Assembly: GCF_964355755.1 (NCBI RefSeq)
Contig: NC_092676.1
Location: forward strand, 12,154,671-12,218,670
Length of the DNA stretch: 64,000 nt
Reading direction: 5' to 3'
DNA from: Antedon mediterranea
Taxonomy: Eukaryota > Animalia > Echinodermata
Part shown: positions 1-48,288 of the stretch, in pieces
Position numbering within the stretch: position 1 is the first letter of the stretch
Layout: every line of letters starts with the position of its first letter
The notes under the pieces: generated by a model
The model's input: only the letters and a program-made list of their open reading frames with translations
The model's database searches: none
Told to the model about the DNA's origin: nothing
Translations under genes and position numbers: made by a program

Positions 1-3000
1 ATGTTAACAAATTTTTTCGAAATGCACAAAATGGTCTAAAACGTCTCTAAATGCGATTTGAAGCTATTTTGTACACTTTGATGTTTTTGTTTGAAAAGTT
101 TTATCGAAATGCTCAAAATGGTCTAAAACGGTTTCAAATGTGATTTTAAGCACTTTGATTCGTAACCAAGTTTCATCGAAATGCACAAAATGGTCTAAAA
201 CGTCTCCAAATGCGATTTGAAGCATTTCTAAGCACTTTGGTGTTTTTATGTTAAAAAGTTTTTTCGAAATGCACAAAATGGTCTAAAACGTCTCCAAATG
301 CGATTTGAGGCTATTCTGTGCACTTTGATGTTTTTGTGTGAAAAGTTTTATCGACATGCTCAAAATGGTTTAAAACGATTTCAAACACGGTATTAAGCTA
401 TTTTGTGCAATTTGATGTTTTTGTGTGAAAAGTTTTATCGAAATGCACAAAATGGTCTAAAACCTCTCTAAATACGATTTGAAGCTATTTTGTACACTTT
501 GATGTTTTTGTGTGAAAAGTTTTTGCGAAATGCTCAAAATGCTCTAAAACGGTTTTAAATGTGATTTTAAGCACTTTGATGTTTTTGTGTAACCAAGTTT
601 CATCGAAATGCACAAAATGGTCTAAAACGTCTCGAAATGCAATTTGGAGATATTCTAAACACTTTGGTCTTTTTATGTTAACAAATGTTTTCGAAATGCA
701 CAAAATGGTCTAAAACGTCTCTAAATGCGATTTTAAGCTATTTTGTACACTTTGATGTTTTTGTGTGAAAAGTTTTATCGAAATGCTCAAAATGGTCTAA
801 AAAGCTTTCAAATACGATATTAATCTATTTTGTGCACTTTGATATTTGTGTGTGAAAAGTTTTATCGAAATGCTCAAAATGGTCTAAACGGTTTCAAATA
901 TGATTTTAAGCACTTTGATGTTTTTGTGTAACCAAGTTTCATCGAAATGCCCAAAATGGTCTAAAACGTCTCCAAATGCGATTTGAAGCATTTCTAAGCA
1001 ATTTGGTGTTTTTATGTTAAAAAGTTTTTTCGAAATGCACTAAATGGTCTAAAACGTCTCCAAATGCCATTTGAAGCTATTCTGTGCACTTTGATGTTTT
1101 TGTGTGAAAAGTGTTATCGACATGCTCAAAATGGTTTAAAACGTTTTCAAACGATATTAAACTATTTTGTGCAATTTGATATTTTTGTGTGAAAAGTTTT
1201 ATCGAAATGCACAAAATGGTCTAGAACATCTCTAAATGCGATTTGAAGTTATTTTGTACACTTTGATGTTTTTGTGTGAAAAGTTTTATCGAAATGCTCA
1301 AAATGGTCTAAAACGGTTTCAAATGTGATTTTAAGCACTTTGATGTTTTTGTGTAACCAAGTTTCATCGAAATGCACATAATGGTCTAAAACGTCTCCAA
1401 ATGCGATATTAAGCTAGTTTGTGCACTTTGATATTTGTGTGTGAAAAGTTTTATCGAAATGCTCAAAATGGTCTAAAACGGTTTCAAATGTGATTTTAAG
1501 CACTTTGATGTTTTTGTGTAACCAAGTTTCATCGAAATGCACAAAATGGTCTAAAACGTCTTCAAATGCGATTTGAAGCATTTCTAATCAATTTGGTGTT
1601 TTTATGTTAAAAAGTTTTTTCGAAAATCACAAAATGGTCTCAAACGTCTCCCAATGCGATTTGAAGCTATTCTATGCACTTCTATGTTTTTATGTTAACA
1701 AGTTTTTTTCGAAATGCACAAAATGGACTAAAACGTCTCCAAATGCGATTTGAAGCTATTCTGTTCATTTTTATGTTTTTGTGTGAAAAGTGTTATCGAC
1801 ATGCTCAAAATGGTCTAAAACGTTTTCAAACACGATATTAAGCTATTTTGTACAATTTGATGTTTTTGTGTGAAAAGTTTTATCAAATTGCACAAAATGG
1901 TCTAAAACATCTCTAAATGCGATTTGAAGCTATTTTGTGCACTTTGATTCTTTTGTGTGAAAAGTTTTATCGAAATGCACAAAAGTGTCTAAAACGTCTC
2001 CAAATGCGATTTGAAGCTGTTCTGTGCACTTTGATGTTTTTGTGTGAAAAGTTTTATCAACATGCTCAAAATGGTTTAAAACGATTTAAAACACGGTATT
2101 AAGTTATTTTGTGCAATTTGATGTTTTTGTGTGAAAAGTTTTATCGAAATGCACAAAATGGTCTAAAACCTCTCTAAATGCGATTTGAAGCTATTTTGTA
2201 CACTTTGATGTTTTTGTGTGAAAAGTTTTATCGAAATGCTCAAAATGCTCTAAAACGGTTTTAAATATTTTGTATTGTATGGAGTGAGTGCAGAATCTGT
2301 TTGGGCTTTAGCCTATTCTCATTCCTGGTTATTTTTACATTGATGACCGAATAAATATTATTATTATTATTATTATTAAATGTGATTTTAAGCACTTTGA
2401 TGTTTTTGTGTAACCAAGTTTCATCGAAATGCACAAAATTGTCTAAAACGTCTCTAAATGCGATTTCGAGATATTCTAAACACTTTGGTCTTTTTATTTT
2501 AAACAAATTTTTTCGAAATGCACAAAATGGTCTAAAACGTCTCTAAATGCGATTTGAAGCTATATTGTACACTTTGATGTTTTTGTGTGAAAAGTTTTAT
2601 CGAAATGCTAAAAATGGTCTAAAACGCTTTAAAATACGATATTAAGCTATTTTGTGCACTTTGATATTTGTGTGTGAAAAGTTTTATCGAAATGCTCAAA
2701 ATGGTCTAAACGGTTTCAAATGTGATTTTAAGCACTTTGATGTTTTTGTGTAACCAAGTTTCATCGAAATGCACAAAATGGTCTAAAACGTCTCCAAATG
2801 CGATTTGAAGCATTTCTAAGGACTTTGGTGTTTTTATGTTAAAAAGTTTTTTCGAAAATCACAAAACGGTCTAAAACGTCTCCAAATGCGATTTGAAGCT
2901 ATTCTAAGCACTTCGATGTTTTTATGTTAACAAGTTTTTTCGAAATGCACAGAATGGTATAAAACGTCTCCAAATGCCATTTGAAGCTATTCTGTGCACT

Positions 3001-5022
3001 TTGATGTTTTTGTGTGAAAAGTTTTATTGACATGCTCAAAATGGTTTAAAACGTTTTCAAACACGATATTAAGCTATTTTGTGCAATTTGATGTTTTTGT
3101 GTGAAAAGTTTTACCGAAATGCACAAAATGGTCTAAAACGTCTCTAAATGCGATTTGAAGTTATTTTGTACACTTTGATGTTTTTGTGTGAAAAGTGTTA
3201 TCGAAATGCACAAAAATGGTCTAAAACGGTTTCAAATGTGATTTTATGCACTTTGATGTTTTTGTGTAATCAAGTTTCATCGAAATGCACAAAATGGTCT
3301 AAAACGTCTCCAAATACGATTTGAAGCATTTCTAAGCACTTTGGTGTTTTTATGTTAAAAAGTTTTTTCGAAAATCACAAAATGGTCTAAAACGTCTCCA
3401 AATGCGATTTGAAGCTATTCTGTGCACTTTGATGTTTTTGTGTCAAAAGTTTTATCGACATGCTCAAAATGGTCTAAAACGTCTTCAAACACGATATTAA
3501 GCTATTTTGTGCAATTTGATGTTTTTTTTGTGAAAAGTTTTATCGAAATTCACAAAATTTTCTAAAACGTCTCTAAATGCGATTTGAAGCTATTTTGTGC
3601 ACTTTGATGTTTTTTGTAAAAAGTTTTATCGAAATGCTCAAAATGCTCTAAAACGGTCAAATGTGATTTTAAGCACTTTGATGTTTTTGTGTAACCAAGT
3701 TTCATCGAAATGCACAAAATGGTATAAAACGTCTCTAAATGCGATTTGAAGCTATTTTGTGCACTTTGATGTTTTTGTGTGAAAAGTTTTATCGAAATGC
3801 TTAAAATGCTCTAAAACGGTTTTAAATGTGATTTTAAGCACTTTGATGTTTTTGTGTAACCAAGTTTCATCGCAATGCACAAAGTGGTCTAAAACGCCTC
3901 CAAATGCCATTTGAAGATATTCTAAACACTTTGCTCTTTTTATGTTAACACATTTTTTCGAAATGCACAAAATGTTCTAAAACGTCTCCAAATGCAATTT
4001 GAAGCTATTCTGTACACCTTGATATTTTGTGTAACCAAGTTTCATCGAAATGCACAAAATGGTCTAAAACGTCTCCAAATGCGATTTGAAGCATTTCTAA
4101 GCACTTTGGTGTTTTTATGTTAAAAAGTTTTTTCGAAATGCACAAAATGGTCTAAAATGTCTCCAAATTCGATTTGAAGCTATTCTGTGCACTTTGATGT
4201 TTTTGTGTGAAAAGTTTTATCGACATGCTCAAAATGGTTTAAAACGATTTCAAACACGGTATTAAGCTATTTTGTGCAATTTGATGTTTTTGTGTGAAAA
4301 GTTTTATCGAAATGCACAAAATGGTCTAAAACCTCTCTAAATGCAATTTGAAGCTGTTTTAAGCACTTTGATGTTTTTGTGTAACCAAGATTCATCGAAA
4401 CGCACAAAATGGTCTAAAACGTCTCCAAATGCGATTTGAAGCTATTTTGTACACTTTGATGTTTTTGTTTGAAAAGTTTTATCGAAATGCACAAAATGGT
4501 CTAAAACCTCTCTAAATGCGATTTGAAGCTATTTTGTACACTTTGATGTTTTTGTGTGAAAAGTTTTATCGAAATGCTCAAAATGCTCTAAAACGGTTTT
4601 AAATGTGATTTTAAGCACTTTGATGTTTTTGTGTAACCAAGTTTCATCGAAATGCACAAAATGGTCTAAAACGTCTCCAAATACGATTTGAAGCATTTCT
4701 AAGCACTTTGGTGTTTTTATGTTAAAAAGTTTTTTCGAAAATTACAAAATGGTCTACAACGTCTCCAAATGCGATTTGAAGCTATTCTGTGCACTTTGAT
4801 GTTTTTGTGTCAAAAGTTTTATCGACATGCTCAAAATGGTCTAAAACGTCTTCAAATACGATATTAAGCTATTTTGTGCAATTTGAAGTTTTTTTTGTGA
4901 AAAGTATTATCGAAATGCACAAAATTTTCTAAAACGTCTTTAAATGCGATTTGAAGCTGTTTTGTGCACTTCGATGTTTTTGTGTGAAAAGTTTTATCGA
5001 AATGCTCAAAATGCCCTAAAAC
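1..5022 (-). repeat. Satellite DNA array (87/88/78-bp monomer family), reverse orientation
   Basis: Continuous tandem units such as atcgaaatgcacaaaatggtctaaaacgtctctaaatgcgatttgaagctattttgtacactttgatgtttttgtgtgaaaagtttt, which is the reverse complement of the monomer seen from 13807 onward. Confidence 0.98.
2267..2375 (+). mobile_element. 5'-truncated non-LTR retroelement or SINE 3' end with (TAT)n tail, inserted in a satellite monomer
   Basis: 109 bp of non-satellite sequence interrupts aaacggttttaaat|gtgattttaag. TTAAAT is duplicated at 2261-2266 and 2376-2381. AATAAA at 2350-2355 is followed by about 7 TAT units. Confidence 0.8.
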
Positions 5023-5456
5023 CACCCGATTCTGCTTCTGTCCACACGTGCTATCTGTAAAACTATAGCAAGTTATACACGTTGCTGTCTGCTATAAATG
5101 CTATACTTTTAACACACGGTACACTGTCTGTAGCACAGTGTGTGTTGACAATTTACAATGATGTACAACCATAGGCAGGTTTTCGTACTGCTATGCAAGA
5201 ATGGATAGGTGTTTTCCGCCACTTTTGGGCCTTCTAGTCAATTATTGTTATTATTATACGAATTACGTAATTAGTCTAGTAGCTCATCTACCTTTTTAGC
5301 AGGGCATAATGAATATTGTAGCTAGGCTAGGCTTACTAGTCTAGCGGGAAATCAACCAATTATTTGGTTGGATACGAGTTTAGGGTAGGAAGTTAAGTAC
5401 GAGTTGGCATGGGTACGAGTCGAGCCAGGGGTGAATCGACCAGAGTACACCCGGCC

Positions 5457-6239
5457 ACCAGAAGTGATTACATTTTACACAAGTGCGGTACGATTCTAGG
5501 CCTATCTCCGCTGTGGTTGCCACGTGCGATTTCATAATAGAATAGCGGCGTTTTGTGTGGATTGTCGAAATAATCAGCCTTTAGTTTATGGTGTTTTTAA
5601 TATAATTTATTCCTAAAGAATTACGTGTTAAAATTATAGTTTCTATTGATACTATTAGGCCTAATTACTAGTCTCTAAACCCATGTCTATTCTAGTAGTA
5701 GCTGTGTTGGTGTGTGTGACGTGTGTGTTAGTTTAGTTATGACACAGTCAGAGTAATAAGTCAGCAAAATTAAACAATAAACATTACACAAAAATACATT
5801 TTTTATTCTCGTGGGTCTAATCTTCCCATCTCATGTGTTCATATACGCGCATTTTTTTAAGTTCCTTTGAGTACATGCATATTGTTTGATAATAAAATAG
5901 CAGAATTAAAAAATTACAGTAAACAAATTATACACATTCTTTATTCTTGTGGGTCTAAGCTTTCTTTGGGCTATGTCCAATGAATTACTACTTAGTTTAA
6001 TGTCTTGCCTAGCTGTCGATTAGCCTCGACTCGAAGAAGAGTGCACGAAGGCAATCACGTGAATTGACTTAGAATCCTAGGCCTACTGTAGAAAGTATCG
6101 TATCGCAGTTGTGTAATCACTTCTTGTTGCTATACGCTTGGGTTCACACGGAACAACAAATTGAACTGATGAATTATTCATGTTTATTTTGTGACGTTTC
6201 ATGAGGGGTCCCCAACTTAGGTACGGAAAAATAAATCGC
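5457..6239. other. 783-bp segment present only in the left arm, bounded by 9-bp direct repeat CACCCGGCC (insertion with target duplication, or deletion in the right arm)
   Basis: CACCCGGCC at 5448-5456 and 6240-6248. The right arm (about 13361-13390, gctctagtagggcggccgggtgtactctgg) has one copy and joins the flanks directly. Confidence 0.85.
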
Positions 6240-6585
6240 CACCCGGCCGCCCTACTAGAGCATAGGCTACAGGCCTGCAGGAATGGGAAATCTGTCCTAG
6301 CTATAGGCATAGGCCTACATTGAGACGCTCAAAAAAGCCATCCTATGAGCATAAAAAGGCCTCGTAGAGCCAGACATGTTAACATATACTACACAGTACT
6401 AGTACGTCTACCATTTATTATAGTTCCATGGTACTAAGGATCACTACACTACTATCTAGGTCTAGTAGGCTAGGGTAGGGTTCCAGTAATTTCGGTCGCG
6501 TTTTTTCAGGAGGGCATGTGAGAGGTGAGGTAGGTTAGCCCAGCTAGGCTAAACTAACATGTAAGTAGTATTCTACCATGGGATT

Positions 6586-6722
6586 GGAACGAGTCGGCAT
6601 GGGGGTGGGTACGGGTTGATCTTTATCCGTATTCTAGGGTGCTGGTCAACCCGTAACCTACCCATGTCAACTCGAACCAAACTTGGCTAACTCGTACCCA
6701 AATAATTGGTCAACTCGTACCA
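6586..6722. repeat. Oppositely oriented clusters of short GTACGAGTTGA-like motifs resembling DNA-transposon subterminal repeats (mirrored at about 12898-13034)
   Basis: gaacgagtcgg and gtacgggttga are followed by tcaacccgtaac, tcaactcgaac, taactcgtacc and tcaactcgtacc at about 21-bp spacing. A further cluster lies at 5370-5425. Confidence 0.6.
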
Positions 6723-9700
6723 ATAGCTTTATAGCTTTATTGATAGCTGGGTTCAAATCTAGGTTGGGACGGTTTTTTCTCATTCTAAAACAGATTTCCT
6801 TATAATAATAAAATAATATCGACCTATGAATTTAACTGTAATATTGTATTGTATACATAATATTAGTAGTAATAGCAATTCCCATTGCATTTATTATTAT
6901 AATATATTTTACGGTTACCCCTTAATTATACTATACTAGTATAACTTCCTTGTTATATTTTATAATATTTTTTTCATAATTCAACAATTTTTTTTCACAG
7001 CTAATTATCAAACTGAATCATCACACACCAAATCTCATGAAATCTCTAGTGTATTTCTCCAAGCTAATCCAGCTACATGGTATTGCCTTGAGGCTAAACT
7101 ACACTGTATACTGGGCACTACCATCATTCCTGGCCCGTCAACCTGGACCACATTATGGTCCAACACAGTCGTGCACTACTGATTCCAAATAGTGAATTGC
7201 ATCCTGTGTCAAGGATTTATTTGCACTTATGCTTATTTCCTCCAACATACAGAGTACGTTGGGCTTTTAATTTGCTTTTATACCTGTTAATTAAAAAATC
7301 GTGTATGCCTATTGTTGCATAAAGATCAAATTTAGACTGTAAATACTGGGATGATCACCCTAAATTTTCTTTTTCATTTAACAATTTTATATTTCACAGC
7401 CAGAAAAAAGCATACAGGGTTTTTTTTATTCATAACTGTTGAATTGCATCCCAATACATGGTACCTATTGGTATTATATCTATAATAATAAAGTACTCTC
7501 TTATAAATAGATGTATCTCTCCAAACTACCTAATCTAATAATAGTACTATTAGCATACTACTGTACACTTTGTAGACAAGAAATAAGTTGTATCCACCTA
7601 GAGGACTTATGTTAGTACTGTACAGTTGATCGTCCTCTCACTGGTCTGGTCAACATAATCTACGCCTAGATTATTACAGTAATTAAAGTACATTATTACA
7701 GAGATTTTTTTTTTTCAGAAATCAAAGTTATGTGTATAGAAAGCAGTACTCGTATTTAAAACTAAGCAGGTTGTACTGAACGCAAACTAACAGGAAACTT
7801 TTGAATATTTTTTGTTGTTGAAAATGATGGAATCCTAACTTCAATTTCCACGAACTGGAGACGAAGACATATTACGACCCTTTTATTTAAATTTATTTGG
7901 ATAGACCTCCATGTAAATTCATTAAAGGCTATATGATTGTTTTATATTTTAATATGTGATAGTAGAAAATCATTGTGTATAATGAGGACTATGAATCTGA
8001 TATTTACTTGCATTCTCATCTTTTTAAAATTTTATTTATAATGCTGGTAATGAATTTACTATTTAAAAAGTCATGTGTCCACTTATCTCAAATTGTGGCA
8101 CACCTCTAACCTTTGTAATAATAATAAAAATAATAAGATTTTTATAGCGCACATACCACTCCAGAGTGCTCAAGAACTGACTGTGTTCTATATGAGTACA
8201 TTTAATTTGCCATATAGTAGTGTTTCCACCATACTTCAACCTGGTAATTGAATACATTTCATCGGGGTAAAATTATCACCTTTAACATAAAGTATCCTCC
8301 TGAAACATGTATTTGTACTGTACTGCATCTACTATTCATTTAATTACTTAATACTAATTTGGGTGATTTATGTCTTAACTTCAGGAATGATCTGAGGCTA
8401 GAAGAACGAATTTCTGCACATATAATTTATATAAAAAATAAACCAATGTTTTCCTAAAAATTTAACCCCTAGGTAGATAACTAACAAAGAAATTATTGAA
8501 ATTGTGTTCTCACAATATATGTGTACTGTATCTACATATGCATACTGCTGTACTTGTTTTTAACCGCATAATGGCATTAACAAAAAAGAATGTTTTATAA
8601 TTATTATGTTATTTCCAAATATTAAAGGTCTGAAACAGAAACTAAATGTTACCAAACTATGTTTTTGAAAATCTCTATGATATAATATAACAATATGAAC
8701 ATAATATTAAATTATATTGACTATTTTTGATAATCATCATGTCCTTATAAATTCATTTATATTTCTTTTGTGTAATATAGTTCATATATTATGTATTAAA
8801 TAAATTGGTAAGGCCCTATACTGTTTATATTTAAGGAAAGTTTATATACACTATTATTTTATGCCTACCAATATTAGTATTAATTGTTTATGTAAATATT
8901 TTGTCTAATTGCATTGATTTTTTGTATAGGTCAATGGCATTAATGTTTTCTCAAATCAAATTAGCCTAATAATGCCATATTTAGAAACACAATTCATTGA
9001 TTTCTGATATTCTGTACTTGTGTATGCATTACTAAAATAGTAGTTATTTTATTTCATTTATAATGTATGTATAAACTTTTATTCAGTTTTTTTGGACATT
9101 TTTGAGTTTAAAAATTATTAAAATACCTATCTACCTTTCTGTTATTGTTACTATTATAATATTTTTTGAGGCAGATTGATTTCAATAAAAAAATTTTAAA
9201 CAATTAATTTGATTTATACTGTACTATGTTAGTTCAGGAGATGAAGTGTGTGTTGGTAGAATCTGGTGTGTTGGAGGTTGGTGATGTGAGGTGTATTTTT
9301 GTCACTTTAAGACCTAAATTAGATGTTTTCTGAAGATAGGCTTTCAAACAACTCCAAGAAGATTCACACAAAAATAATTACTTCCCAATAAAAGAGTATG
9401 TAACAGTGTATATTACACTACATTGAATAAACTCGAGCGGAAAAATAACACACATAAAAAATAATTCATTTCCTTGTCGAAAAGCGCCCTCTCTAGTTTT
9501 CTATTAATTTATTAATAATTATTATTAATTAATGAGTAATATAAACTTATTTTTAACATTTAATGCTGGAAGCTGATTCTACTCCTAACAAGGTGTCATA
9601 CCTCCAAATTTCGTCAACGTATTCAAAGCACTTCAATAAATATCACATTGAACATTAAAAATTAGGGTTATGGATAGAATTTTGCTTAAAAACATATACA

Positions 9701-9948
9701 AAAAACATCGATAAAAAATACTTTTCGAATTTAAAAACATTTGAAACTTCTTTTATATGTTCAATATAGGTTGCTCTATTCACAGAAACAAAAAGTTTTT
9801 TGTTGGTTGTTTCTTTCAAAATCATTATTAGGTTTAAAAAATGCATTGGAATTGTATGGTCTTTCATAAGTGTACATTTTGTAGAAACGTAAATTTAAAA
9901 AATCAGTAATATGGCTTGATAGTTATTTTTTTTTTTGCAATATGGATG

Positions 9949-12900
9949 GAGCAACCTATATTGAACATTTATACCAAGTATCAAATGTTTTTGAATACGA
10001 AAACTATTTTTTATCGATGTTTTTTGTATATGTTTTAAGCAAAATTCTATCCATAACCCTAATTTTTAATGTTCAATGTGATATCTATTGAAGTGCTTTG
10101 AATACGTTGATGAAATTTGGAGGTATGAAACTTTGTTTGGAGTAGAATCAGCTTCCAGCATCAAATGTTAAAAATATGTTCATATTACTCATTAATTAAT
10201 AATAATTATTAATAAATTAATAGAAAACTAGAGAGGGCGTTTTCGACAAGGAAATGAATGTTTTTTTATGTGTGTTATTTTTCCGCTCGAATTCATTCAA
10301 TGTACTTTAATATACACTATTACATACTATTTTATTGGGAAGCCTATTCACTTCTTTTCTTCAGAAAACATCTCATTTAGGTCTTAAAGTCACAAAAATA
10401 CACCTCACATCACCAACCTCAAACACACCAGATTCTACCAACACACACTTCATCTTCACACATCTCCTGAACTAACATAGTACAGTATAAGTCAAATTAA
10501 ATGTTTTAAATTTTTTTATTGAAATCAATCTTCTGCAAAAAATATTATAATAGTAACAATAACAGAAAGGTTGATAGGTATTTTAATATTTTTTAAACTT
10601 AAAAAGGTAAAAAAAAAACTGAATAAATGTTTATACATACATTATAAATGGAATAAAATAACTACTATTTTAGTAATGCATACACAAGTAAAGAATATCA
10701 GAAATCAATGAATTATGTGTCTAAATATGGCATTATTAGGCCAATTTGCTTTGAGAAAAACATTAAGGCCATTGGCCTATACAAAAAATCAATGCAATAA
10801 GACAAAATAGTTACATAAACAATTAATACTAATATTGGTAGGTATAAAATAATAGTGTATATAAACTTTCCTTAAATATAAACAGTATAGGGCCTTACCA
10901 ATTTATTTAATACATAATATATGAACTATATTACACAAAAGAAATATAAATGAATTTATAAGGACATGATTATCAATATAATTTAATATTATGTTCATAT
11001 TATTATATTATATCATAGAGATTTTTAAAAACATAGTTTGGTAACATTTAGTTTCTGTTTCAGACCTTTAATATTTGGAAATAACCTATAATAATTATAA
11101 AACATTCTTGTTTTCAATGCCATTATGCGGTTAAAAACAAGTACAGCAGCATGCATGTGTAGATACAGTACACCTATATATTGTGAGAACATAATTTCAA
11201 TAATTTCTTTGTTAGTTATCAACCTAGGGGTTAAATTATTAGCAAAACATTGGTTTATTTTTTATATGTGTACAGAAATTCGTTCTTCTAGCCTCAGATC
11301 ATTCCTGAAGTTAGACATAAATCACATAAATTAGTATTAAGTAATGGATATTAGATGAAGTATAGTACAAATACATGTTTCAGGAGGATACTTTATGTTA
11401 AAGGTGATAATTAGTTTAAATGTTACCCCAATGAAATTTATTCAATTACCAGGTTGAAGTAGTCTGGTGGAAACACTACTATATGTACTCATGTAGAACA
11501 CAGTCAGTTCTACCAAAGTTAGAGGTGGGTGCCAACATTTGAGATAAGTGGAAACATGACCTTTTCAATAGTAAATTCATTACCAGCATTATAAATAAAA
11601 TGTTAAAAAGATGAGAATGCAAGTAAATATTAGATTCATAGTCCTCATTATGCACAATGGTTTTCTACTATCACATTATTAAAATATAAAGCAATCATAT
11701 AGCCTTTAATGAATTTACATGGAGGTCTATCCAAATAAATTTAAATAAAAGGGTCGTAATATGTCTTTGTCTCCAGTTCATGGAAAATGAACAAAAAATA
11801 TTCAAAATATCCTGCCAGTTTGCGTTCAGTACAACCTGCTTAGTTTTTAATACGAGTACTGCTTTCTATACAAATAACTTTGATTTCTGCAACAACAAAA
11901 AAATCTCTGTAATAATAGTACTTTTTAATTACTGTAATAATCTAGGCATAGATTATGTTGACCAGGCCAGTGAGAGGACGATCGACTGTACAGTACTACT
12001 ATAAGTCCTCTAGGTGGATACAACTTATTTCTTGTCTACAAAGTGTACGGTAGTATGCTAATAGTACTATTATTAGATTAGGTAGTTGGAGTAGTTTGGA
12101 GAGATACATCTATTTATAAGAGAGTACTTTATATTTATAGATATAATACCAATAGGTACCATGTATTGGGATGCAATTCAACAGTTATGAATAAAAAAAA
12201 CCCTGTATGCTTTTTTCTGGCTGTGAAATATAAAATTGTTAAATGAAAAAGAAAATTTAGGGTGATCATCCCAGTATTTACAGTCTAAATTTGATCTTTA
12301 TGCAACAATAGGCATAAACGATTTTTTATTTAACAGGTATAAAAGCAAATTAAAAGCCCTACGTACTCTGTATGTTGGAGGAAATAAGCATAAGTGCAAA
12401 TAAATCCTTGACACAGGATGCAATTCACTATTTGGAATCAGTAGTACACGACTGTGTTGGACCATAATGTGGTCCAGGTTGACGGGCCAGGAATGATGGT
12501 AGTGCCCAGTATACAGTGTAGTTTAGCCTCAAGGCAATACCATGTAGCTGGATTAGCTTGGAGAAATACACTAGAGATTTCATGAGATTTGGTGTGTGAT
12601 GATTCAGTTTGATAATTAGCTGTGAAAAAAAATTGTTGAATTATGAAGAAAATATTGTAAAATATAACAAGGAAGTTATACTAGTATAGTATAATTAAGG
12701 GGAAACCGTAAAATATATTATAATAATAAATGCAATGGGAATTACTATTACTACTAATATTATGTATACAATACAATATTACAGTTAAATTCATAGGTCG
12801 ATATTATTTTATTATTATAAGGAAATCTGTTTTAGAATGAGAAAAAACCGTCCCAACCTAGATTTGAACCCAGCTATCAATAAAGCTATAAAGCTATTGG

Positions 12901-13806
12901 TACGAGTTGACCAATTATTTGGGTACGAGTTAGCCAAGTTTGGTTCGAGTTGACATGGGTACGTTACGGGTTGACCAGCACCCTAGAATACGGATAAAGA
13001 TCAACCCGTACCCACCCCCATGCCGACTCGTTCCAATCCCATGGTAGAATACTACTTACATGTTAGTTTAGCCTAGCTGGGCTAACCTACCTCACCTCTC
13101 ACATGCCCTCCTGAAAAAACGCGACCGAAATTACTGGAACCCTACCCTAGCCTACTAGACCTAGATAGTAGTGTAGTGATCCGTAGTACCATGGAACTAT
13201 AATAAATGGTAGACGTACTAGTACTGTGTAGTATATGTTAACATGTCTGGCTCTACAAGGCCTTTTTATGCTCATATAGGATGGCTTTTTTGGGCGTCCC
13301 AATGTAGGCCTATGCCTATAGCTAGGACAGATTTCCCATTCCTGCAGGCCTGTAGCCTATGCTCTAGTAGGGCGGCCGGGTGTACTCTGGTCGATTCACC
13401 CCTGGTCGACTCGTACCCATGCCAACTCGTACTTAACTTCCTACCCTAAACTCGTATCCAACCAAATAATTGATTGATTTCCCGCTAGAATAGTAGGCCT
13501 AGTCTAGCTACAATATTCATTATGCCCTTCTAAAAAGGTAGATGAGCTACTAGACTAATTACGTAATTCGTATAATAATAACAATAATTGACTAGAAGGC
13601 CTAAAAGCGGCGGAAAACACCTATCCATTCTTGCATGGCAGTACGAAAACCTGCCTATGGTTGTACATCATTGTAAATTGTCAACACACACTGAGCTACA
13701 GACAGTGTACCGTGTGTTAAAAGTACGGCATTTATAGCAGACAGCAACGTGTATAACTTGCTATAGTTTTACAGATAGCACCTGTGGACAGTAGCAGAAT
13801 CGGGTG
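9949..13806 (-). repeat. Right arm of palindrome
   Basis: Reverse complement of 5023-9776, lacking the 5457-6239 segment. Confidence 0.95.
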
Positions 13807-15619
13807 TAAAATCACATTTGAAACCGTTTAGACCATTTTGAGCATGTCGATAAAACTTTTCACACAAAAACATCAAAGTGTACAAAATAGCTTCAAATCG
13901 CATTTAGAGAGGTTTTAGACCATTTTGTGCATTTCGATAAAACTTTTCACACAAAAACATCAAAGTGTACAAAATAACTTCAAATCGCATTTAGAGACGT
14001 TTTAGACCATTTTGAGCATGTCGATAAAACTTTTCACACAAAAACATCAAAGTGCACAGAATAGTTTCAAATCGCATTTGGAGACGTTTTAGACCATTTT
14101 GTGCATTTCGATAAAACTTTTCACATAAAAACATCAAAGTGCACAAAATAGCTTCAAATCGCATTTAGACACGTTTTAGACCATTTTGGGCATTTCGATT
14201 AAACTTGGTTACACAAAAACATAAAAGTGCTTAAAATCACATTTCACACCGTTTTAGAGCATTTTGAGCATTTCGATAAAACTTTTCACACAAAAACATC
14301 AAAGTGTACAAAATAGCTTCAAATCGCATTTAGAGAGGTTTTAGACCATTTTGTGCATTTCGATAAAAATTTTCACATAAAAACATCGAAGTGCTTAGAA
14401 TAGCTTCAAATCGCATTTGGAGACGTTTTAGACCATTTTGTGCATTTCGATGAAACTTGGTTACACAAAAACATCAAACTGCTTAAAATCACATTTGACC
14501 GTTTTAGAGCATTTTGAGCATTTCGATAAAACTTTTCACACAAAAACATCAAAGTGCACAAAATAGCTTCAAATCGCATTTCGAGACGTTTTAGAAAATT
14601 TTGTGCATTTCAATAAAACTTTTCAAAAAAAAACATAAAAGTGAACAGAATAGCTTCAAATTGCGTTTGGAGACGTTTTAGAGCATTTTGTGTATTTCGA
14701 TAAAATGTGTTAACATAAAAATACCAAAGTGTTTAGAATATCTTCAAATCGCATTTGGAGACGTTTTAGACCATTTTGTGCATTTCGATGAAACTTGGTT
14801 ACACAAAAACTTAAAAGTGCTTAAAATCACATTTCAAACCGTTTTAGAGCATTTTGAGCATTTCGATAAAACTTTTCACACTAAAACATCAAAGTGCACA
14901 AAATAGCTTCAAATCGCATTTAGAGATGTTTTAGACCATTTTGTGCAATTCGATAAAAGTTTTCACACAAAAACATGAAATTGCACAAAATAGCTAAATA
15001 TCGTGTTTGAAAACGTTTTAGACCATTTTGTGCATTTCGATGAAACTTGGTTACACAAAAACATCAAAGTGCTTAAAATCACATTTGAAACCGTTTAGAC
15101 CATTTTGAGCATTTCGATAAAACTTTTCACACGCAAATATCAAAGTGTACAGAATAGCTTCAAATTGCATTTGGAGACGTTTTAGACCATTTTGTGCATT
15201 TCGATAAAATGTGTTAACATGAAAAGACCAAAGTGTTTAGAATATCTTCAAATCGCATTTGGAGACGTTTTAGACCATTTTGTGCATTTCGATGAAACTT
15301 GGTTACACAAAAAAATCAAAGTGCTTAAAATCACATTTAAAACCGTTTTAGAGCATTTTGAGCATTTCGATAAAACTTTTCACACAAAAACATCAAAGTG
15401 CACAGAATATCTTAAAATGGCATTTGGAGACGTTTTAGACTATTTTGTTCATTTCGAAAAAACTTGTTAACATAAAAACATCGAAGTGCTTAAAATCACA
15501 TTTAAAACCGTTTTAGAGCATTTTGAGCATTTCGATAAAACTTTTCACACAAAAACATCAAAGTGTACAAAATAACTTCAAATCGCATTTAGAGACGTTT
15601 TAGACCATTTTGTGCATTT

Positions 15620-18160
15620 CGATAAAACTTTTCACACAAAAACATCAAATTGCACAAAATAGCTTAATATCGTGTTTGAAAACGTTTTAGACCAATTTGA
15701 GCATGTCGATAAAACTTTTCACACAAAAACATAAAAGTGAACAGAATAGCTTCAAATTGGATTTGGAGACGTTTTAGAGCATTTTGTGCATTTCGATAAA
15801 ATGTGTTAACATAAAAAGACCAAAGTGTTTAGAATATCTTCAAATCACATTTGGAGACGTTTTAGACCATTTTTTGCATTTCGATGAAACTTGGTTACAC
15901 AAAAACATCAAAGTGCTTAAAACCGTTGCTTAAAATCACATTTAAAACCGTTTTAGAGCATTTTGAGCATTTCGTTAAAACTTTTCACACAAAAACATCA
16001 AAGTGTACAAAATAGCTTCAAATCGCATTTAGAGAGGTTTTAGACCATTTTGTGCATTTCGATAAAACTTTTCACACAAAAACATCAAAGTGTACAAAAT
16101 AGCTTCAAATGGCATTTAGAGACGTTTTAGACCATTTTGGGCATTTCGATGAAACTTAGTTACACAAATACATAAAAGTCCTTAAAATCACATTTCAAAC
16201 CGTTTTAGAGCATTTTGAGCATTTCGATAAAACTTTTCACACAAAAACATCAAAGTGCACAAAATAGCTTCAAATCGCATTTAGAGATGTTTTAGACCAT
16301 TTTGTGCAATTCGATAAAACTTTTAACACAAAAACATCAAATTGCACAAAATAGCTTAATATCGTGTTTGAAAACGTTTTAGACCATTTTGAGCATGTCG
16401 ATAAAACTTTTCACACAAAAACATAAAAGTGAACAGAATAGCTTCAAATTGGATTTGGAGACGTTTTAGAGCATTTTGTGCATTTCGATAACATGTGTTA
16501 ACATAAAAAGACCAAAGTGTTTAGAATATCTTCAAATCACATTTGGAGACGTTTTAGACCATTTTTTGCATTTCGATGAAACTTGGTTACACAAAAACAT
16601 CAAAGTGCTTAAAACCGTTGCTTAAAATCACATTTAAAACCGTTTTAGAGCATTTTGAGCATTTCGTTAAAACTTTTCACACAAAAACATCAAAGTGTAC
16701 AAAATAGCTTCAAATCGCATTTAGAGAGGTTTTAGACCATTTTGTGCATTTCGATAAAACTTTTCACACAAAAACATCAAAGTGTACAAAATAGCTTCAA
16801 ATGGCATTTAGAGACGTTTTAGACCATTTTGGGCATTTCGATGAAACTTAGTTACACAAATACATAAAAGTCCTTAAAATCACATTTCAAACCGTTTTAG
16901 AGCATTTTGAGCATTTCGATAAAACTTTTCACACAAAATCATCAAAGTGCACAAAATAGCTTCAAATCGCATTTAGAGATGTTTTAGACCATTTTGTGCA
17001 ATTCGATAAAACTTTTCACACAAAAACATCAAATTGCACAAAATAGCTTAATATCGTGTTTGAAAACGTTTTAGACCATTTTGAGCATGTCGATAAAACT
17101 TTTCACACAAAAACATAAAAGTGAACAGAATAGCTTCAAATTGGATTTGGAGACGTTTTAGAGCATTTTGTGCATTTCGATAAAATGTGTTAACATAAAA
17201 AGACCAAAGTGTTTAGAATATCTTCAAATCACATTTGGAGACGTTTTAGACCATTTTTTGCATTTCGATGAAACTTGGTTACACAAAAACATCAAAGTGC
17301 TTAAAACCGTTGCTTAAAATCACATTTAAAACCGTTTTAGAGCATTTTGAGCATTTCGTTAAAACTTTTCACACAAAAACATCAAAGTGTACAAAATAGC
17401 TTCAAATCGCATTTAGAGAGGTTTTAGACCATTTTGTGCATTTCGATAAAACTTTTCACACAAAAACATCAAAGTGTACAAAATAGCTTCAAATGGCATT
17501 TAGAGACGTTTTAGACCATTTTGGGCATTTCGATGAAACTTAGTTACACAAATACATAAAAGTCCTTAAAATCACATTTCAAACCGTTTTAGAGCATTTT
17601 GAGCATTTCGATAAAACTTTTCACACAAAAACATCAAAGTGCACAAAATAGCTTCAAATCGCATTTAGAGATGTTTTAGACCATTTTGTGCAATTCGATA
17701 AAACTTTTCACACAAAAACATCAAATTGCACAAAATAGCTTAATATCGTGTTTGAAAACGTTTTAGACCATTTTGAGCATGTCGATAAAACTTTTCACAC
17801 AAAAACATAAAAGTGAACAGAATAGCTTCAAATTGGATTTGGAGACGTTTTAGAGCATTTTGTGCATTTCGATAAAATGTGTTAACATAAAAAGACCAAA
17901 GTGTTTAGAATATCTTCAAATCACATTTGGAGACGTTTTAGACCATTTTTTGCATTTCGATGAAACTTGGTTACACAAAAACATCAAAGTGCTTAAAACC
18001 GTTGCTTAAAATCACATTTAAAACCGTTTTAGAGCATTTTGAGCATTTCGTTAAAACTTTTCACACAAAAACATCAAAGTGTACAAAATAGCTTCAAATC
18101 GCATTTAGAGAGGTTTTAGACCATTTTGTGCATTTCGATAAAACTTTTCACACAAAAACA
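15620..18160 (+). repeat. 692-bp 8-monomer higher-order repeat, about 3.7 copies
   Basis: The diagnostic gtgcttaaaaccgttgcttaaaatcac recurs with its ccgttg core at 15923, 16615, 17307 and 17999, an exact 692-bp spacing. It recurs again at 41523 and 42215 and once at 23309. Confidence 0.9.
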
Positions 18161-18497
18161 TCAGAGTGTACAAAATTGCTTCAAATGGCATTTAGAGAGG
18201 TTTTAGACCATTTTGTGCATTTCGATAAAACTTTTCACACAAAAACATCAAAGTGCACAGAATATCTTAATACCGTGTCTGAAATCGTTTTAAACCATTT
18301 TGAGCATGTCGATAAAACTTTTCACACAAAAACATCAAAGTGCACAGAATATCTTCAAATCGCATTTAGAGACGTTTTAGACCATTTTGTGCATTTCGAA
18401 AAAATTTGTTAACATAAAAAGACCAAAGTGTTTAGAATATCTCCAAATCGCATTTGGAGACGTTTTAGACCATTTTGTGCATTTCGATGAAACTTGG

Positions 18498-20270
18498 TTA
18501 CACAAAAACATCAAAGTGCTTAAAATCACATTTAAAACCGTTTTAGAGCGTTTTGAGCGATTCGATAAACTTTTCACACAAAAACATCAAAGTGCACAAA
18601 ATAGCTTCAAATCGCATTTAGAGATGTTTTAGACCATTTTGTGCATTTCGATAAAACTTTTCACACAAAAACATCAAATTGCACAAAATAGCTTAATACC
18701 GTGTTTGAAATCATTTTAAACCATTTTGAGCATGTCGATAAAACTTTTCACACAAAAATATCAAAGTGCACAGAATATCTTCAAATCGCATTTAGAGACG
18801 TTTTAGACCATTTTGTGCATTTCGAAAAAATTTGTTAACATAAAAAGACCAAAGTGTTTAGAATATCTCCAAATCGCATTTGGAGACGTTTTAGACCATT
18901 TTGTGTTTTTCGAAAAAACTTTTCACACAAAAACATCAAAGTGTACAAAATTGCTTCAAATCGCATTTGGAGACGTTTTAGACCATTTTGTGATTTTCGA
19001 AAAACTTTTCACACAAAAACATCAAAGTGTAGAAAATTGCTTCAAATCGGAAAAAAAATGTTTTGAGAGATGTTTTAGAACAATTTTGTGCATTTCGAAA
19101 AAATTTGTTAACATAAAAAGACCAAAGTGTTTAGAATATCTCCAAATCGCATTTGGAGACGTTTTAGACCATTTTGTGCATTTCGATGACACTTGGTTAC
19201 ACAAAAACATCAAAGTGCTTAAAATCACATTTAAAACCGTTTTAGAGCGTTTTGAGCATTTCGATAAACTTTTCAAACAAAAACATCAAAGTGTACAAAA
19301 TAGCTTCAAATCGTATTTGGAGACGTTTTAGACCATTTTGTGCGTTTCGATGTATCTTGGTTACACAAAAACATCAAAGTGCTTAAAATCACATTTAAAA
19401 CCGTTTTAGAGCGTTTTGAGCGATTCGATAAACTTTTCACACAAAAACATCAAAGTGCACAAAATAGCTTCAAATCGCATTTAGAGATGTTTTAGACCAT
19501 TTTGTGCATTTCGATAAAACTTTTCACACAAAAACATCAAATTGCACAAAATAGCTTAATACCGTGTTTGAAATCATTTTAAACCATTTTGAGCATGTCG
19601 ATAAAACTTTTCACACAAAAATATCAAAGTGCACAGAATATCTTCAAATCGCATTTAGAGACGTTTTAGACCATTTTGTGCATTTCGAAAAAATTTGTTA
19701 ACATAAAAAGACCAAAGTGTTTAGAATATCTCCAAATCGCATTTGGAGACCTTTTAGACCATTTTGTGTTTTTCGAAAAAACTTTTCACACAAAAACATC
19801 AAAGTGTACAAAATTGCTTCAAATCGCATTTGGAGACGTTTTAGACCATTTTGTGATTTTCGAAAAACTTTTCACACAAAAACATCAAAGTGTAGAAAAT
19901 TGCTTCAAATCGGAAAAAAAATGTTTTGAGAGATGTTTTAGAACAATTTTGTGCATTTCGAAAAAATTTGTTAACATAAAAAGACCAAAGTGTTTAGAAT
20001 ATCTCCAAATCGCATTTGGAGACGTTTTAGACCATTTTGTGCATTTCGATGACACTTGGTTACACAAAAACATCAAAGTGCTTAAAATCACATTTAAAAC
20101 CGTTTTAGAGCGTTTTGAGCATTTCGATAAACTTTTCAAACAAAAACATCAAAGTGTACAAAATAGCTTCAAATCGTATTTGGAGACGTTTTAGACCATT
20201 TTGTGCGTTTCGATGTATCTTGGTTACACAAAAACATCAAAGTGCTTAAAATCACATTTAAAACCGTTTT
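18498..20270 (+). repeat. 863-bp local tandem duplication of about 10 monomers
   Basis: The rare variant aaatcggaaaaaaaatgttttgagaga occurs at about 19043 and 19906. Near-identical 172-aa spurious ORFs start at 18813 and 19676 (offset 863). Confidence 0.88.
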
Positions 20271-23200
20271 AGTGCATTTTGAGCATTTCGATAAAACTTT
20301 TCACACAAAAACATCAAATTGCACAAAATAGCTTAATATCGTGTTTGAAAACGTTTTAGACCATTTTGAGCATGTCGATAAAACTTTTCACACAAAAACA
20401 TAAAAGTGCACAGAATAGCTTCAAATCGCATTTGGAGTCGTTTTAGACCATTTTGTGCATTTCGAAAAAACTTTTTAACATAAAAACACCAAAGTTCTTA
20501 GAATAGCTTCAAATCGCATTTGGAGACGTTTTAGACCATTTTGTGCATATCGATGAAACTTGGTTACACAAAAACATCAAAGTGCTTAAAATCACATTTG
20601 AAACCGTTTTAGAGCATTTTGAGCATTTCGATAAAACTTTTCACACAAAAACATCAAAGTGTACAAAATAGCTTCAAATCACATTTGAAACCGTTTTAGA
20701 CCATTTTGAGCATTTCGATAAAACTTTTCACACAAAAACATCAAAGTGTACAAAATAGCTTCAAATCGCATTTGGAGACGTTTTAGACCATTTTGTGCAT
20801 TTCGATGAAACTTGGTTACACAAAAACATCAAAGTGCTTAAAATTTCATTTGAAAGCGTTTTAGAGCATTTTGAGCATTTCGATAATACTTTTCACACAA
20901 AAACATCAAAGTGTACAAAATAGCTTCAAATCGCATTTGGAGACGTTTTAGACCATTTTGTGCATTTCGATAAAACTTTTCACACAAAAACATCAAAGTG
21001 TACAAAATAACTTCAAATCGTATTTAGAGACGTTTTAGACCATTTTGTGCATTTTGATAAAACTTTTCACACAAAAACATCAAATTGCACAAAATAGCTT
21101 AATATCGTGTTTGAAAACGTTTTAAACCATTTTGAGCATGTCGATAAAACTTTTCACACAAAAATATCAAAGTGCACAGAATATCTTCAAATCGCATTTA
21201 GAGACGTTTTAGACCATTTTGTGCATTTCGAAAAAATTTGTTAACATAAAAAGACCAAAGTGTTTAGAATATCTCCAAATCGCATTTGGAGACGTTTTAG
21301 ACCATTTTGTGATTTTCGAAAAACTTTTCACACTAAAACATCAAAGTGTAGAAAATTGCTTCAAATCGCATTTAGAGATGTTTTAGACCATTTTGTGCAT
21401 TTCGAAAAAATTTGTTAACATAAAAAGACCAAAGTGTTTAGAATATCTCCAAATCGCATTTGGAGACGTTTTAGACCATTTTGTGCATTTCGATGACACT
21501 TGGTTACACAAAAACATCAAAGTGCTTAAAATCACATTTAAAACCGTTTTAAAGCGTTTTGAGCATTTCGATAAACTTTTCAAACAAAAACATCAAAGTG
21601 TACAAAATAGCTTCAAATCGTATTTGGAGACGTTTTAGACCATTTTGTGCGTTTCGATGAATCTTGGTTACACAAAAACATCAAAGTGCTTAAAATCACA
21701 TTTAAAACCGTTGTAGTGCATTTTGAGCATTTCGATAAAACTTTTCACACAAAAACATCAAATTGCACAAAATAGCTTAATATCGTGTTTGAAAACGTTT
21801 TAGACCATTTTGAGCATGTCGATAAAACTTTTCACACAAAAACATCAAAGTGAACAGAATAGCTTCAAATTGCATTTGGAGACGTTTTAGAGCATTTTGT
21901 GCATTTCGATAAAATGTGTTAACATAAAAAGACAAAAGTGTTTAGAATATCTTCAAATCACATTTGGAGACGTTTTAGACCATTTTTTGCATTTCGATGA
22001 AACTTGGTTACACAAAAACATCAAAGTGCTTAAAATCACATTTAAAACCGTTTTAGAGCATTTTGAGCATTTCAATAAAACTTTTCACACAAAAACATCA
22101 AAAAGTGCACAGAATATCTTCAAATCGAATTTAGAGACGTTTTAGACCATTTTGTGCATTTCGAAAAAATTTGTTAACATAAAAAGACCAAAGTGTTTAG
22201 AATATCTCCAAATCGCATTTGGAGACGTTTTAGACCATTTTGTGCATTTCGATGAAACTTGGTTACACAAAAACATCAAAGTGCTTAAAATCACATTTGA
22301 AACCGTTTTAGAGCATTTTGAGCATTTCGATAAAACTTTTCACACAAAAACATCAAAGTGTACAAAATAGCTTCAAATCGCATTTGGAGACGTTTTAGAC
22401 CATTTTGTGCATTTCGATGAAACTTGGTTACACAAAAACATCAAAGTGCTTAAAATCACATTTGAAACCGTTTTAGAGCATTTTTAGCATTTCGATAATA
22501 CTTTTCACACAAAAACATCAAAGTGTACAAAATAGCTTCAAATCGCATTTGGAGACGTTTTAGACCATTTTGTGCATTTCGATAAAACTTTTCACACAAA
22601 AACATCAAAGTGTACAAAATAGCTTCAAATCGCATTTAGAGACGTTTTAGACCATTTTGTGCATTTCGATAAAACTTTTCACACAAAAACATCAAATTGC
22701 ACAAAATAGCTTCAAGTCGCATTTGGAGACGTTTTAAACCATTTTGTGCATTTCGATAAAACTTTTCACATAAAAACATCAAAGTGTACAAAATAGCTTC
22801 AAATGGCATTTAGAGACGTTTTAGACCATTTTCGGCATTTCGATGAAACTTAGTTACACAAATACATAAAAGTCCTTAAAATCACATTTCAAACCGTTTT
22901 AGAGCATTTTGAGCATTTCGATAAAACTTTTCACACAAAAACATCAAAGTGCACAAAATAGCTTCAAATCGCATTTAGAGATGTTTTAGACCATTTTGTG
23001 CAATTCGATAAAACTTTTCACACAAAAACATCAAATTGCACAAAATAGCTTAATATCGTGTTTGAAAACGTTTTAGACCATTTTGAGCATGTCGATAAAA
23101 CTTTTCACACAAAAACATAAAAGTGAACCGAATAGCTTCAAATTGGATTTGGAGACGTTTTAGAGCATTTTGTGCATTTCGATAAAATGTGTTAACATAA

Positions 23201-24218
23201 AAAGACCAAAGTGTTTAGAATATCTTCAAATCACATTTGGAGACGTTTTAGACCATTTTTTGCATTTCGATGAAACTTGGTTACACAAAAACATCAAAGT
23301 GCTTAAAACCGTTGCTTAAAATCACATTTAAAACCGTTTTAGAGCATTTTGAGCATTTCGTTAAAACTTTTCACACAAAAACATCAAAGTGTACAAAATA
23401 GCTTCAAATCGCATTTAGAGAGGTTTTAGACCATTTTGTGCATTTCGATAAAACTTTTCACACAAAAACATCAAAGTGAACAAAATAACTTCAAATCGCA
23501 TTTAGAGACGTTTTAGACCATTTTGTGCATTTTGATAAAACTTTTCACACAAAAACATCAAATTGCACAAAATAGCTTAATACCGTGTTTGAAATCGTTT
23601 TAAACCATTTTGAGCATGTCGATAAAACTTTTCACAAAAAAACATCAAAGTGCACAGAATAGCTTCAAATCGCATTTGGAGACGTTTTAAACCATTTTGT
23701 GCATTTCGATAAAACTTTTCACATAAAAACATCAAAGTGTACAAAATAGCTTCAAATCGCATTTAGAGACGTTTTAGACCATTTTGGGCATTTCGATGAA
23801 ACTAAGTTACACAAATACATAAAAGTCCTTAAAATCACATTTCAAACCGTTTTAGAGCATTTTGAGCATTTCGATAAAACTTTTCACACAAAAATATCAA
23901 AGTGCACAGAATAGCTTCAAATCGCATTTGGAGACGTTTTAGACCATTTTGTGTTTTTCGAAAAAACTTTTCACACAAAAACATCAAAGTGTACAAAATT
24001 GCTTCAAATCGCATTTGGAGACGTTTTAGACCATTTTGTGATTTTCGAAAAACTTTTCACACAAAAACATCAAAGTGTAGAAAATTGCTTCAAATCGCAT
24101 TTAGAGACGTTTTAGACCATTTTGTGCATTTCGAAAAAATTTGTTAACATAAAAAGACCAAAGTGTTTAGAATATCTCCAAATCGCATTTGGAGACGTTT
24201 TAGACCATTTTTTTTTTT

Positions 24219-25330
24219 ATCTTATGTGGGTTCATCCCACTTTTATTTCCATACCACTGTTCTCTTTACATATATTTTTCACTATACACTATACATATCA
24301 TTATATTTACAATGTTTGTTTAATCATCTGTATACATATACTTATTTAAAGAGTTTTATTCATTTGTTTACATATTATCACATTGATTACATAGCTTCCT
24401 CTTTTTAGACATATTATCTGTAACACATTTTCATTAACAAGCTTATTTTTTTTTCTTACATAGTTGTTTTTGATTTTTTCATCTACCACATTTTCATTTA
24501 ACAATGCATATTCTCTGTTATACTCATTACTTACTAAATGTTTACTGTTAACATAATATTGTTCTCATCCTTTAACATTAATATTAATATTTTTGTTCTT
24601 TAATGTTTACAAAACCAGCAGATCCTTTTTTGCATCTATAACTTCTTAAATTTTCATTTAACTTTTTTACTTTCTTCTCTTATGTGGATTCATTCCACTT
24701 TTTTTTTTTTGTTTACTTATTTTCTTTAAAAAAAAAAAAAAAAAAAACTATTTCCATATATTATTTTGTTTATACATACATTATCATTTAACCACATTGA
24801 TTACATAGTTTCCTCTTTTTATACATATTATCTATAACACATTTTCATTAACAAAGCTTATTTTTTCTTACATAGTTGTTTTTGGTTTTTTTTCATCTAC
24901 ATGCATATTTATTTCATACAATTATAATACGTTTATGTTTAATAAATCCATCCCATGGGTTTGTCCCATTTTATTTTTCTTTGGATTTATCTATGCAAAC
25001 ATATTTTCATTTAAACAATGCATATTCTCAGTTATACTAATTACTTACTAACTTTTTACTGTTAACATTATATTTTCCTCATCCTTTAACATTGATTTTT
25101 TTTATCTTTAAATGTTTACAAAATTTATTTCCAACAGATTATCCTTTTTTGCATCTACAGTATAACCCATCAAAGTTTCATTTAACTTTTTTTTCCTATG
25201 TGGGTTCATTCAATTATTTTTTTTTTTACTTATTATTTATTCTATTATTTTTTTTATACATACATTATCATTTAACAACATTTGTGTTTAATGATCCATT
25301 AAAAAAATTTGACATTTTTTTTTTTCTTTT
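24219..25330 (-). repeat. Diverged tandem repeats (about 460-520 bp, 2+ copies) in the LINE 3' UTR
   Basis: tatgtggRttcat recurs at about 24223, 24681 and 25197. cacattgattacatag...cattaaca recurs at about 24380 and 24794. acaatgcatattctc...ctcatcctttaacatt recurs at about 24501 and 25015. Confidence 0.85.
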
Positions 25331-25570
25331 TAACCATTTTATCATTTCAAAATTCCACATGCAGTAAGAATGTGCAAATTACATATATACGGTATATACC
25401 TATAATATGAAAGCTTTGATGAAAACACTTCACCACTTAAACCTAAACCTTCTTATCCTTCATCATTTTTTTTTATCATCAATCTATAAAAAGCTTTTCA
25501 CATTTTGTCTTTTTGTTTTCAAATCATCAAGGTATACATATTTACAAAATATACAGTATAGTAGCAAGGG

Positions 25571-25604
<34 letters not shown>

Positions 25605-25686
25605 ATAATAGATTCATCATTCATGGTATCTCATTTACATATTTTCTTCCTTAATCTGGTTGAGCATATATAGTATACCTGCAGAT

Positions 25687-29366: not shown

Positions 29367-29485
29367 ATGATTATTAAATATAAAACATTTTATAAACTTT
29401 ATAATTTATCTTAAATAAAAAAACTAAATTGTAATAATAAACATTTGAAGTCATATTGCACAGTATGATACAGTAGTTCTGCAAC

Positions 29486-48252: not shown

Positions 48253-48288
<36 letters not shown>

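Follow-up and report, generated by a model that had tools for sequence, protein, structure and literature searches.

What occupies the point at which a satellite array switches strand, and how might such a switch arise? The question is raised by a 64,000-nucleotide stretch of the Antedon mediterranea genome (NCBI RefSeq assembly GCF_964355755.1, contig NC_092676.1, forward-strand positions 12,154,671 to 12,218,670; the whole stretch is called the window here), in which the orientation of the satellite reverses exactly at an 8.8-kb palindrome. We read this palindrome as a member of a multi-copy family of non-autonomous fold-back DNA transposons that would be mobilised in trans by a transposase of CMC/Transib type, and the copy in the window as a recombinant of two insertions at a satellite inversion breakpoint. 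We give this explanation a probability of roughly 0.55.

A non-coding palindrome at a satellite strand switch

The array and the palindrome are arranged as follows.

1-64000 (whole window): satellite array of 87/88/78-bp monomers, broken by the palindrome at 5023-13806 and by two copies of a long interspersed nuclear element (LINE)
1-5022, forward strand: left satellite block, 87/88/78-bp monomers, less homogenised, carrying a variant missing from the right blocks
5023-9782, forward strand: left arm of the palindrome, starting CACCCGATTCTGC
9783-9942, no strand: spacer of about 160 bp with 24% GC, the fold-back centre
9943-13806, reverse strand: right arm, ending GCAGAATCGGGTG
13807-24211, reverse strand: right satellite block, opposite in orientation to the left one, resuming at 30942-46890 and 53627-64000 around the LINE copies

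An initial annotation, made from the letters of the window, had described an 8.8-kb fold-back palindrome at 5023-13806 with sharp, matching termini, no recognisable open reading frame (ORF) and satellite in opposed orientations exactly on either side, and our results bear out each of these points. Self-BLAST and global alignment agree on the arms and their limits. The ends, of the CAC..GTG type, are sharp and identical over 13 nt at 5023 and 13806. Arm-to-arm mismatches occupy 134 of 3,813 aligned columns (3.5%), 29 indels separate the arms and the longest identical run between them is 220 bp. The global alignment also contains a 792-bp extra segment in the left arm, absent from the initial annotation, that has no counterpart in the right; it corresponds to a nested insertion.

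5448-6248, left arm only: nested insertion of 783 bp (5457-6239) between 9-bp direct repeats (5448-5456 and 6240-6248)

Repeats in the arm interior are short and scattered, with no tandem sub-repeats save one 21-bp pair. The centre is computed to fold at -530 kcal/mol (z -64); so stable a predicted hairpin is expected because the sequence is a palindrome, and it is no proof of expression.

The element is non-coding. Its longest stop-to-stop frame encodes 104 amino acids, where 200 local shuffles gave a median of 105, and none of the 73 frames of at least 40 amino acids (13 + 60 frames searched) rose above the Pfam cut-off; this Pfam search found no transposase remnant among the element's frames. 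Rfam and tRNA searches of the element each returned no match. One Pfam match, to Cas_Csn2 (E 0.0015; 18.7 bits against a cut-off of 23.7), was rejected as a sub-threshold hit in an AT-rich frame.

The change of satellite strand is complete. An 18-nt satellite core occurs 19 times on the forward strand and never on the reverse strand to the left of the element, with corresponding counts of 0 and 143 to its right. The satellite to the left and that to the right are of different subtypes and meet the element at differing junctions, and neither mirrors the other: one 9-mer has 7 copies on the left and none on the right, while another has none on the left and 41 on the right, and 31-mers unique within their block make up 51% of the left block as against 18-28% of seven equal-sized right-hand blocks, comparisons of subtype and homogenisation that extend over the 5 kb of left block visible in the window. 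The loose continuation of the symmetry into the array, as initially annotated, thus holds for orientation and not for sequence, and the suggestion that the palindrome is a centre from which the satellite grew in both directions is, given these different subtypes and junctions, not supported in its literal form.

A multi-copy family with a shared fold-back centre

Part of the left arm is present in 13 public runs, seven of which were aligned (X1, X5, X6, X9, X10, X11 and X13). X1 and X5 derive from organism A, in two studies, and X6 and X9 from organism B; X1 is possibly the source sample. None of X10, X11 and X13 was treated as an additional host species; X10 has the letters of organism B. Every one of the 30 bins of arm plus spacer is covered by contigs in X1, X5 and X6, as are 28 of 30 in X10. 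Up to dozens of variant contigs are found per site, with 161 variant places in X1, and this diversity shows that there are many copies, although summed contig depth is not a measure of copy number. The element therefore belongs to a multi-copy family found in two organisms.

Other copies of the family share the fold-back centre. With the reference spacer and right arm, opposite-strand joints at the centre were detected in two of four runs, namely in two X5 contigs and one X9 contig. One of the X5 contigs, 339 nt long, carries 74-79 nt of arm on both sides of the centre and differs at 22 positions in 206 nt, indicating that it comes from another copy, in another study. Since the centre is crossed in other copies, the palindrome is a trait of the family and not a fold-back read; the substitutions between the arms, their 29 indels and the one insertion, together with this recurrence, rule out such an artefact. 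The centre is without contig cover in X11 and X13, as are positions 9822-9960 in X10, and given the small shares held by these runs we draw no conclusion from the gaps.

A single X13 contig spans 13600-13806 and stops one letter later, which fits a discrete end of the element, though its depth of 2.3, against 20-32 for other X13 pieces, makes carry-over possible. Among the rows listed, there were no loose contig ends at the element terminus and no flanks of other copies. Neither the terminus pattern nor the satellite pattern occurred in metagenome contigs (0 each). In viral contigs, the terminus matched one locus over 18 nt without longer similarity, and this match was taken as chance.

The nested insertion is a repeat in its own right and exceeds the arm in abundance in organism A; its summed contig depth is about ten times that of the arm in X1, and joints that skip it are seen in X1, X5 and X6. 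Short GGTACGAG-type sub-repeats lie in inverted arrangement at 5355-5447 and 6580-6722, with mirrors at 12898-13040 and 13382-13475, and may resemble Mutator-like sub-terminal repeats. Loose contig ends at 6721 and 12892 suggest a further nested and separately dispersed repeat within the arms.

A motif like the element's own terminus and a candidate intron, each present in both arms, bear on what the arms may once have been.

10426-10436, forward strand: internal 11-mer resembling the terminus, in partner orientation (left-arm counterpart at 9258-9268, reverse strand)
11887-12366, reverse (inward-facing) strand: GT-AG intron of 480 nt, removed in one X5 contig (joint 11886-12367)
7254-7718, forward (inward-facing) strand: left-arm copy of the intron, by homology to 11887-12366

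Of 1000 shuffles, 33 produced a terminus-like 11-mer on the partner strand and 76 on either strand, and family contigs run across this one. It is possibly a relic of the original other end, or a chance match. If it is real, each arm would once have been an element with short terminal inverted repeats (TIRs) and the whole a composite of two. The intron has a good donor and a polypyrimidine acceptor, and the exons joined across it contain no frame over 63 amino acids. The spliced X5 contig has a depth of 118 and 29 letters on its short side, with a joint close by, 11881-12375, in X9. That X5 is RNA is a guess, and these joints are a hint that some copy of the family is transcribed inward and spliced.

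Arm divergence and a probable recombinant origin

Divergence between the arms is uneven. It amounts to about 1.2% at 6240-7519 and to 5%, with 27 indels, at 7520-9782.

7458-7627 (right-arm equivalent about 12000): divergence step, change point at 7611/12000, with 1.8% outside and 6.4% inside in events per column

None of 500 permutations reached a step of this size, and a second change point at 6364 is marginal (43 of 1000 permutations). We infer that the step marks either a crossover or the end of a conversion tract. Letters of the public contigs were compared for 34 left-arm rows (40 listed of 301, less five in the insertion and one in the spacer) and 38 right-arm rows (40 listed of 180, less two in the spacer). 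Among the rows listed, 17 of 19 near-fixed left-arm rows equal the right arm's letter and 24 of 36 near-fixed right-arm rows equal the left arm's, with seven of the other 12 coming from one divergent contig. Given that near-fixed letters mostly match the opposite arm, each arm has drifted separately from one family sequence.

We propose the following history. One end of a parent element, comprising its terminus and first non-coding exons and introns, may have been joined head to head with a second copy of itself, a step modelled on the maize Mu killer locus and Ac composite insertions. The palindrome would then have spread as a unit, moved in trans by a CMCT-type transposase (CMCT being the clade of EnSpm/CACTA, Mirage, Chapaev and Transib); the existence of other copies with the same centre agrees with this step in part. 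Two related copies would subsequently have inserted at different A/T-rich sites of one array, and a crossover at about 7,600/12,000, in which the left arm of one copy recombined with the other copy's right arm, would have inverted the intervening DNA. Among elements in direct orientation, only a palindromic one would be able to invert the DNA between its copies in this way. A single crossover would yield opposed flanks, unmatched target sites and differing satellite subtypes on the two sides. The outer parts of the arms would be same-side arms of recent sister copies, and thus more alike than the inner parts, which would be opposite arms of one copy; this difference in origin would account for the divergence step. 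Finally, read-through from either arm across the centre would produce a multi-kilobase hairpin RNA and small RNAs.

The two junctions are consistent with this history. When both flanks are read inward, CTAAAAC ends the left one and GTGATTTTA the right one. In satellite phase the two junctions are offset by 19 bp; they fall in one 78-bp monomer type, but in different variants of it. There is no exact target-site duplication at the two element ends, and its lack in this copy is expected for a recombinant. Close to the element, the flanks are about as similar as the array predicts: over 170, 260 and 430 bp, 158, 66 and 26 of 250 random same-phase satellite pairs, respectively, score as high. Of the two initially annotated alternatives, the non-autonomous giant fold-back element that marks an inversion breakpoint is the one strengthened by the family, its crossed centre, the intact CAC..GTG ends, the lack of an exact duplication and the divergence step.

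Several observations weigh against a recombinant of two mobile copies, and we consider them together with the explanations that each would favour. TAAAA is present on both sides of the element with a one-base offset, a coincidence found in 0.8% of 200,000 random pairs, although the motif was picked post hoc. It could be a true target duplication. A single copy may then have inserted at a pre-existing strand switch and duplicated TAAAA, followed by a one-base change at the left end and homogenisation of the outer arms by gene conversion; a 5-bp duplication is within the CMCT range (PMC12730594). This scenario requires insertion into a rare junction. Moreover, the extra C equals the next satellite base, and a shared TAAAA/TTTTA target preference would give the same picture under the two-insertion explanation. 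We judge a pre-existing switch quite unlikely.

The flanks also share monomer order over about 600-1000 bp, to an extent matched by only 7 of 250 and 3 of 250 random pairs, a weak excess. Together with the position of both junctions in one monomer type, this order is what might remain if a replication U-turn or a sister-chromatid exchange at one copy had mirrored its flank, with the satellite then expanding both ways. Arm divergence of 1% would, under such an event, imply flanks about 99% identical, but they are about 90% alike and share one low-count 20-mer among 193. The offset between the junctions and the different subtype variants argue in the same direction, making this the least probable of the alternatives considered here.

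The pattern of divergence itself leaves room for doubt. The terminal 424 bp differ by 3.1%, against 1.2% in the adjoining segment, an excess that one crossover leaves unexplained. Gene conversion between the arms of a single copy yields the same step; it would explain the step but not the strand switch.

The public contigs, for their part, showed no second insertion with its flanks and no autonomous partner, so that mobility is inferred, and no public record spans the entire element. In organism B, the X9 contig that crosses the centre follows the arm for 271 nt in one direction and the right arm for 48 nt in the other, beyond which come 869 unlike letters; it shows the fold-back centre in organism B and does not show 4-kb arms there. 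A multi-copy 8.8-kb palindrome with no spanning record is a likely site for a mis-join, and an assembler that jumped between copies in their similar outer arms would produce a strand switch and mimic a recombinant of a real family. Against this possibility, the arms differ by 1-6% with no identical run above 220 bp, the assembly separates a pair of 6.7-kb LINE copies with 99.8% identity, and independent contigs cross the centre. We regard a mis-join as very unlikely.

Other features of the array

The remaining interruptions of the array in the window are two LINE copies.

24212-30941, reverse strand: LINE copy, 6.7 kb
46891-53626, reverse strand: LINE copy, 6.7 kb, 99.8% identical to the first by self-BLAST

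Their satellite junctions are identical, and both copies lie within a duplication of the array of about 22.7 kb. ORF1 has a weak zinc-knuckle match, ORF2 (endonuclease, reverse transcriptase and zf-RVT) is split into three pieces, and the top match in a protein search has 45% identity. The order of its domains suggests a tentative label of L1/Tx1-like. A young higher-order repeat of about 692 bp, at 99-100% identity, occupies 15600-18000 and 41000-42500; it starts about 1.8 kb from the palindrome, and the initial 1.8 kb of the right array are not homogenised. In the left block, an insertion of about 110 bp (window positions about 2267-2378) has an (ATT)n tail, is accompanied by what looks like a short duplication, and resembles the truncated 3' end of a retroelement. 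It occupies the same 19-bp stretch of the 78-bp monomer that separates the two junctions of the palindrome, and this stretch is possibly an insertion hot spot.

Comparison with known elements

Our literature search found no description of this palindrome family, which Repbase and Dfam, both outside the search, may catalogue. Likewise, the available part of a review of giant transposons (PMC6431247) includes no element of this build among those described. Like fold-back elements as a class, the palindrome consists mostly of long inverted arms, lacks coding capacity and is multi-copy with a shared centre, whereas its arms are not built of internal tandem sub-repeats as are those of classical FB and Galileo.

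The Galileo/Newton elements of Drosophila, fold-back-like members of the P superfamily, are also non-coding, consist almost wholly of long inverted repeats and carry nested insertions (PMC2775673, PMC3573991, PMC4168063). Their chimeric copies lack matching target duplications, and they cause inversions by ectopic recombination (same sources), with exchanged target duplications and chimeric copies found at the breakpoints (PMC2775673, PMC3573991). Galileo TIRs reach about 1.26 kb in elements that average 1.7-2.2 kb (PMC3573991), in contrast to the 3.9-kb arms (three times as long) and 8.8-kb length found here. Galileo further has a 7-8-bp target duplication and internal tandem repeats, neither of which is present in the palindrome. 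We conclude that the element is probably a fold-back non-autonomous transposon of a new and very large form, situated at a likely inversion breakpoint.

The superfamily is less certain. CA..TG ends with 2-5-bp target duplications characterise the CMCT clade (PMC12730594), and the CAC..GTG ends of the palindrome fit it (PMC4079192, PMC12730594), as the initial annotation had suggested for CMC or Transib. No exact 2-5-bp duplication is present here, however, and membership rests on the transposase, a DDE enzyme with C(2)C and H(3-4)H motifs, of which the element retains no remnant by which to place it. The Chapaev3 pattern of a TWA duplication between A and T (PMC4079192) also fails, since the left end reads AAC and the TTA on the right is preceded by T.

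For the proposed origin by fusion, maize offers the nearest parallels. Mu killer (PMC3440606) and Ac composite insertions (10.1101/2020.01.07.897926) both contain the same transposon end twice, in head-to-head orientation, and are transcribed into hairpin RNA; the Ac composite insertions keep an 8-bp duplication. At about 4-8 kb and with head-to-head ends, these resemble the palindrome, but they are single loci with transposase-coding fragments, whereas the palindrome represents a multi-copy family with no coding remnant.

The closest published layout is that of the cichlid centroids, which are ORF-less, TE-derived (from transposable elements), about 15 kb long and contain a large inverted repeat flanked by opposed arrays of two satellite types (PMC13652916). 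The palindrome, like centroids probably derived from a non-autonomous DNA transposon, shares the lack of ORFs, the inverted repeat, the strand switch and the two satellite types. Centroids differ in being only partly palindromic and in containing satellite copies. They form inverted pairs that are shared between chromosomes, with 150-250 kb between the two members and a methylation dip in the middle, and they showed no transcription; the cichlid satellites are 237 or 186 bp long, as opposed to 87/78 bp here (PMC13652916).

Could the palindrome then be one member of an inverted pair, retained on either side of the active centromere and each marking a strand switch? Such a role is compatible with a transposon origin, its distinct claim being a selected function. 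The strand switch at the element, the different subtypes and the greater homogenisation of one side's array match the cichlid layout (PMC13652916). No partner lies within the 50 kb to the right or the 5 kb to the left, a weak objection at centroid spacing. In addition, the element has no internal satellite copies (best E 3.2), while both cichlid centroid types have them, the family seems far more numerous than two per chromosome, and the array contains fresh LINE duplications. Strand switches are also common in the satellites of the human genome, including non-centromeric ones (10.1101/2021.07.12.452052). A centroid-like boundary is accordingly an unlikely explanation of the locus, and a centromere role for the element, argued from this comparison, is doubtful.

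Biological significance

A mobile family with arms of about 4 kb around a 160-bp loop would exceed the length of the fold-back arms in the literature compared here several times over. Palindromes of this length should be unstable, which makes the spread of such a family a puzzle.

A bolder scheme can be drawn by analogy, which we hold to be rather unlikely. A second animal lineage may have centroid-type centromeres, derived from a wholly palindromic transposon that homes into the main satellite. Recombination between arms would generate strand switches, pairs of copies would bracket the centromere, and inward promoters would supply hairpin RNA for heterochromatin. The inner and outer repeats of fission yeast provide a comparison for hairpin RNA that feeds heterochromatin. 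If true, the scheme would give a mechanism for the reorientation of satellites by centroids, a matter left open in PMC13652916.

If copies prove to be paired around the centromere, centroid architecture would extend beyond cichlids; if they are unpaired, the element would be a passive transposon of an ordinary kind, though of unusual size, at an inversion breakpoint. In our preferred explanation, the copy described here records a route to satellite strand switches, the opposite-arm crossover of two directly oriented palindromic insertions, and this route predicts a reciprocal breakpoint.

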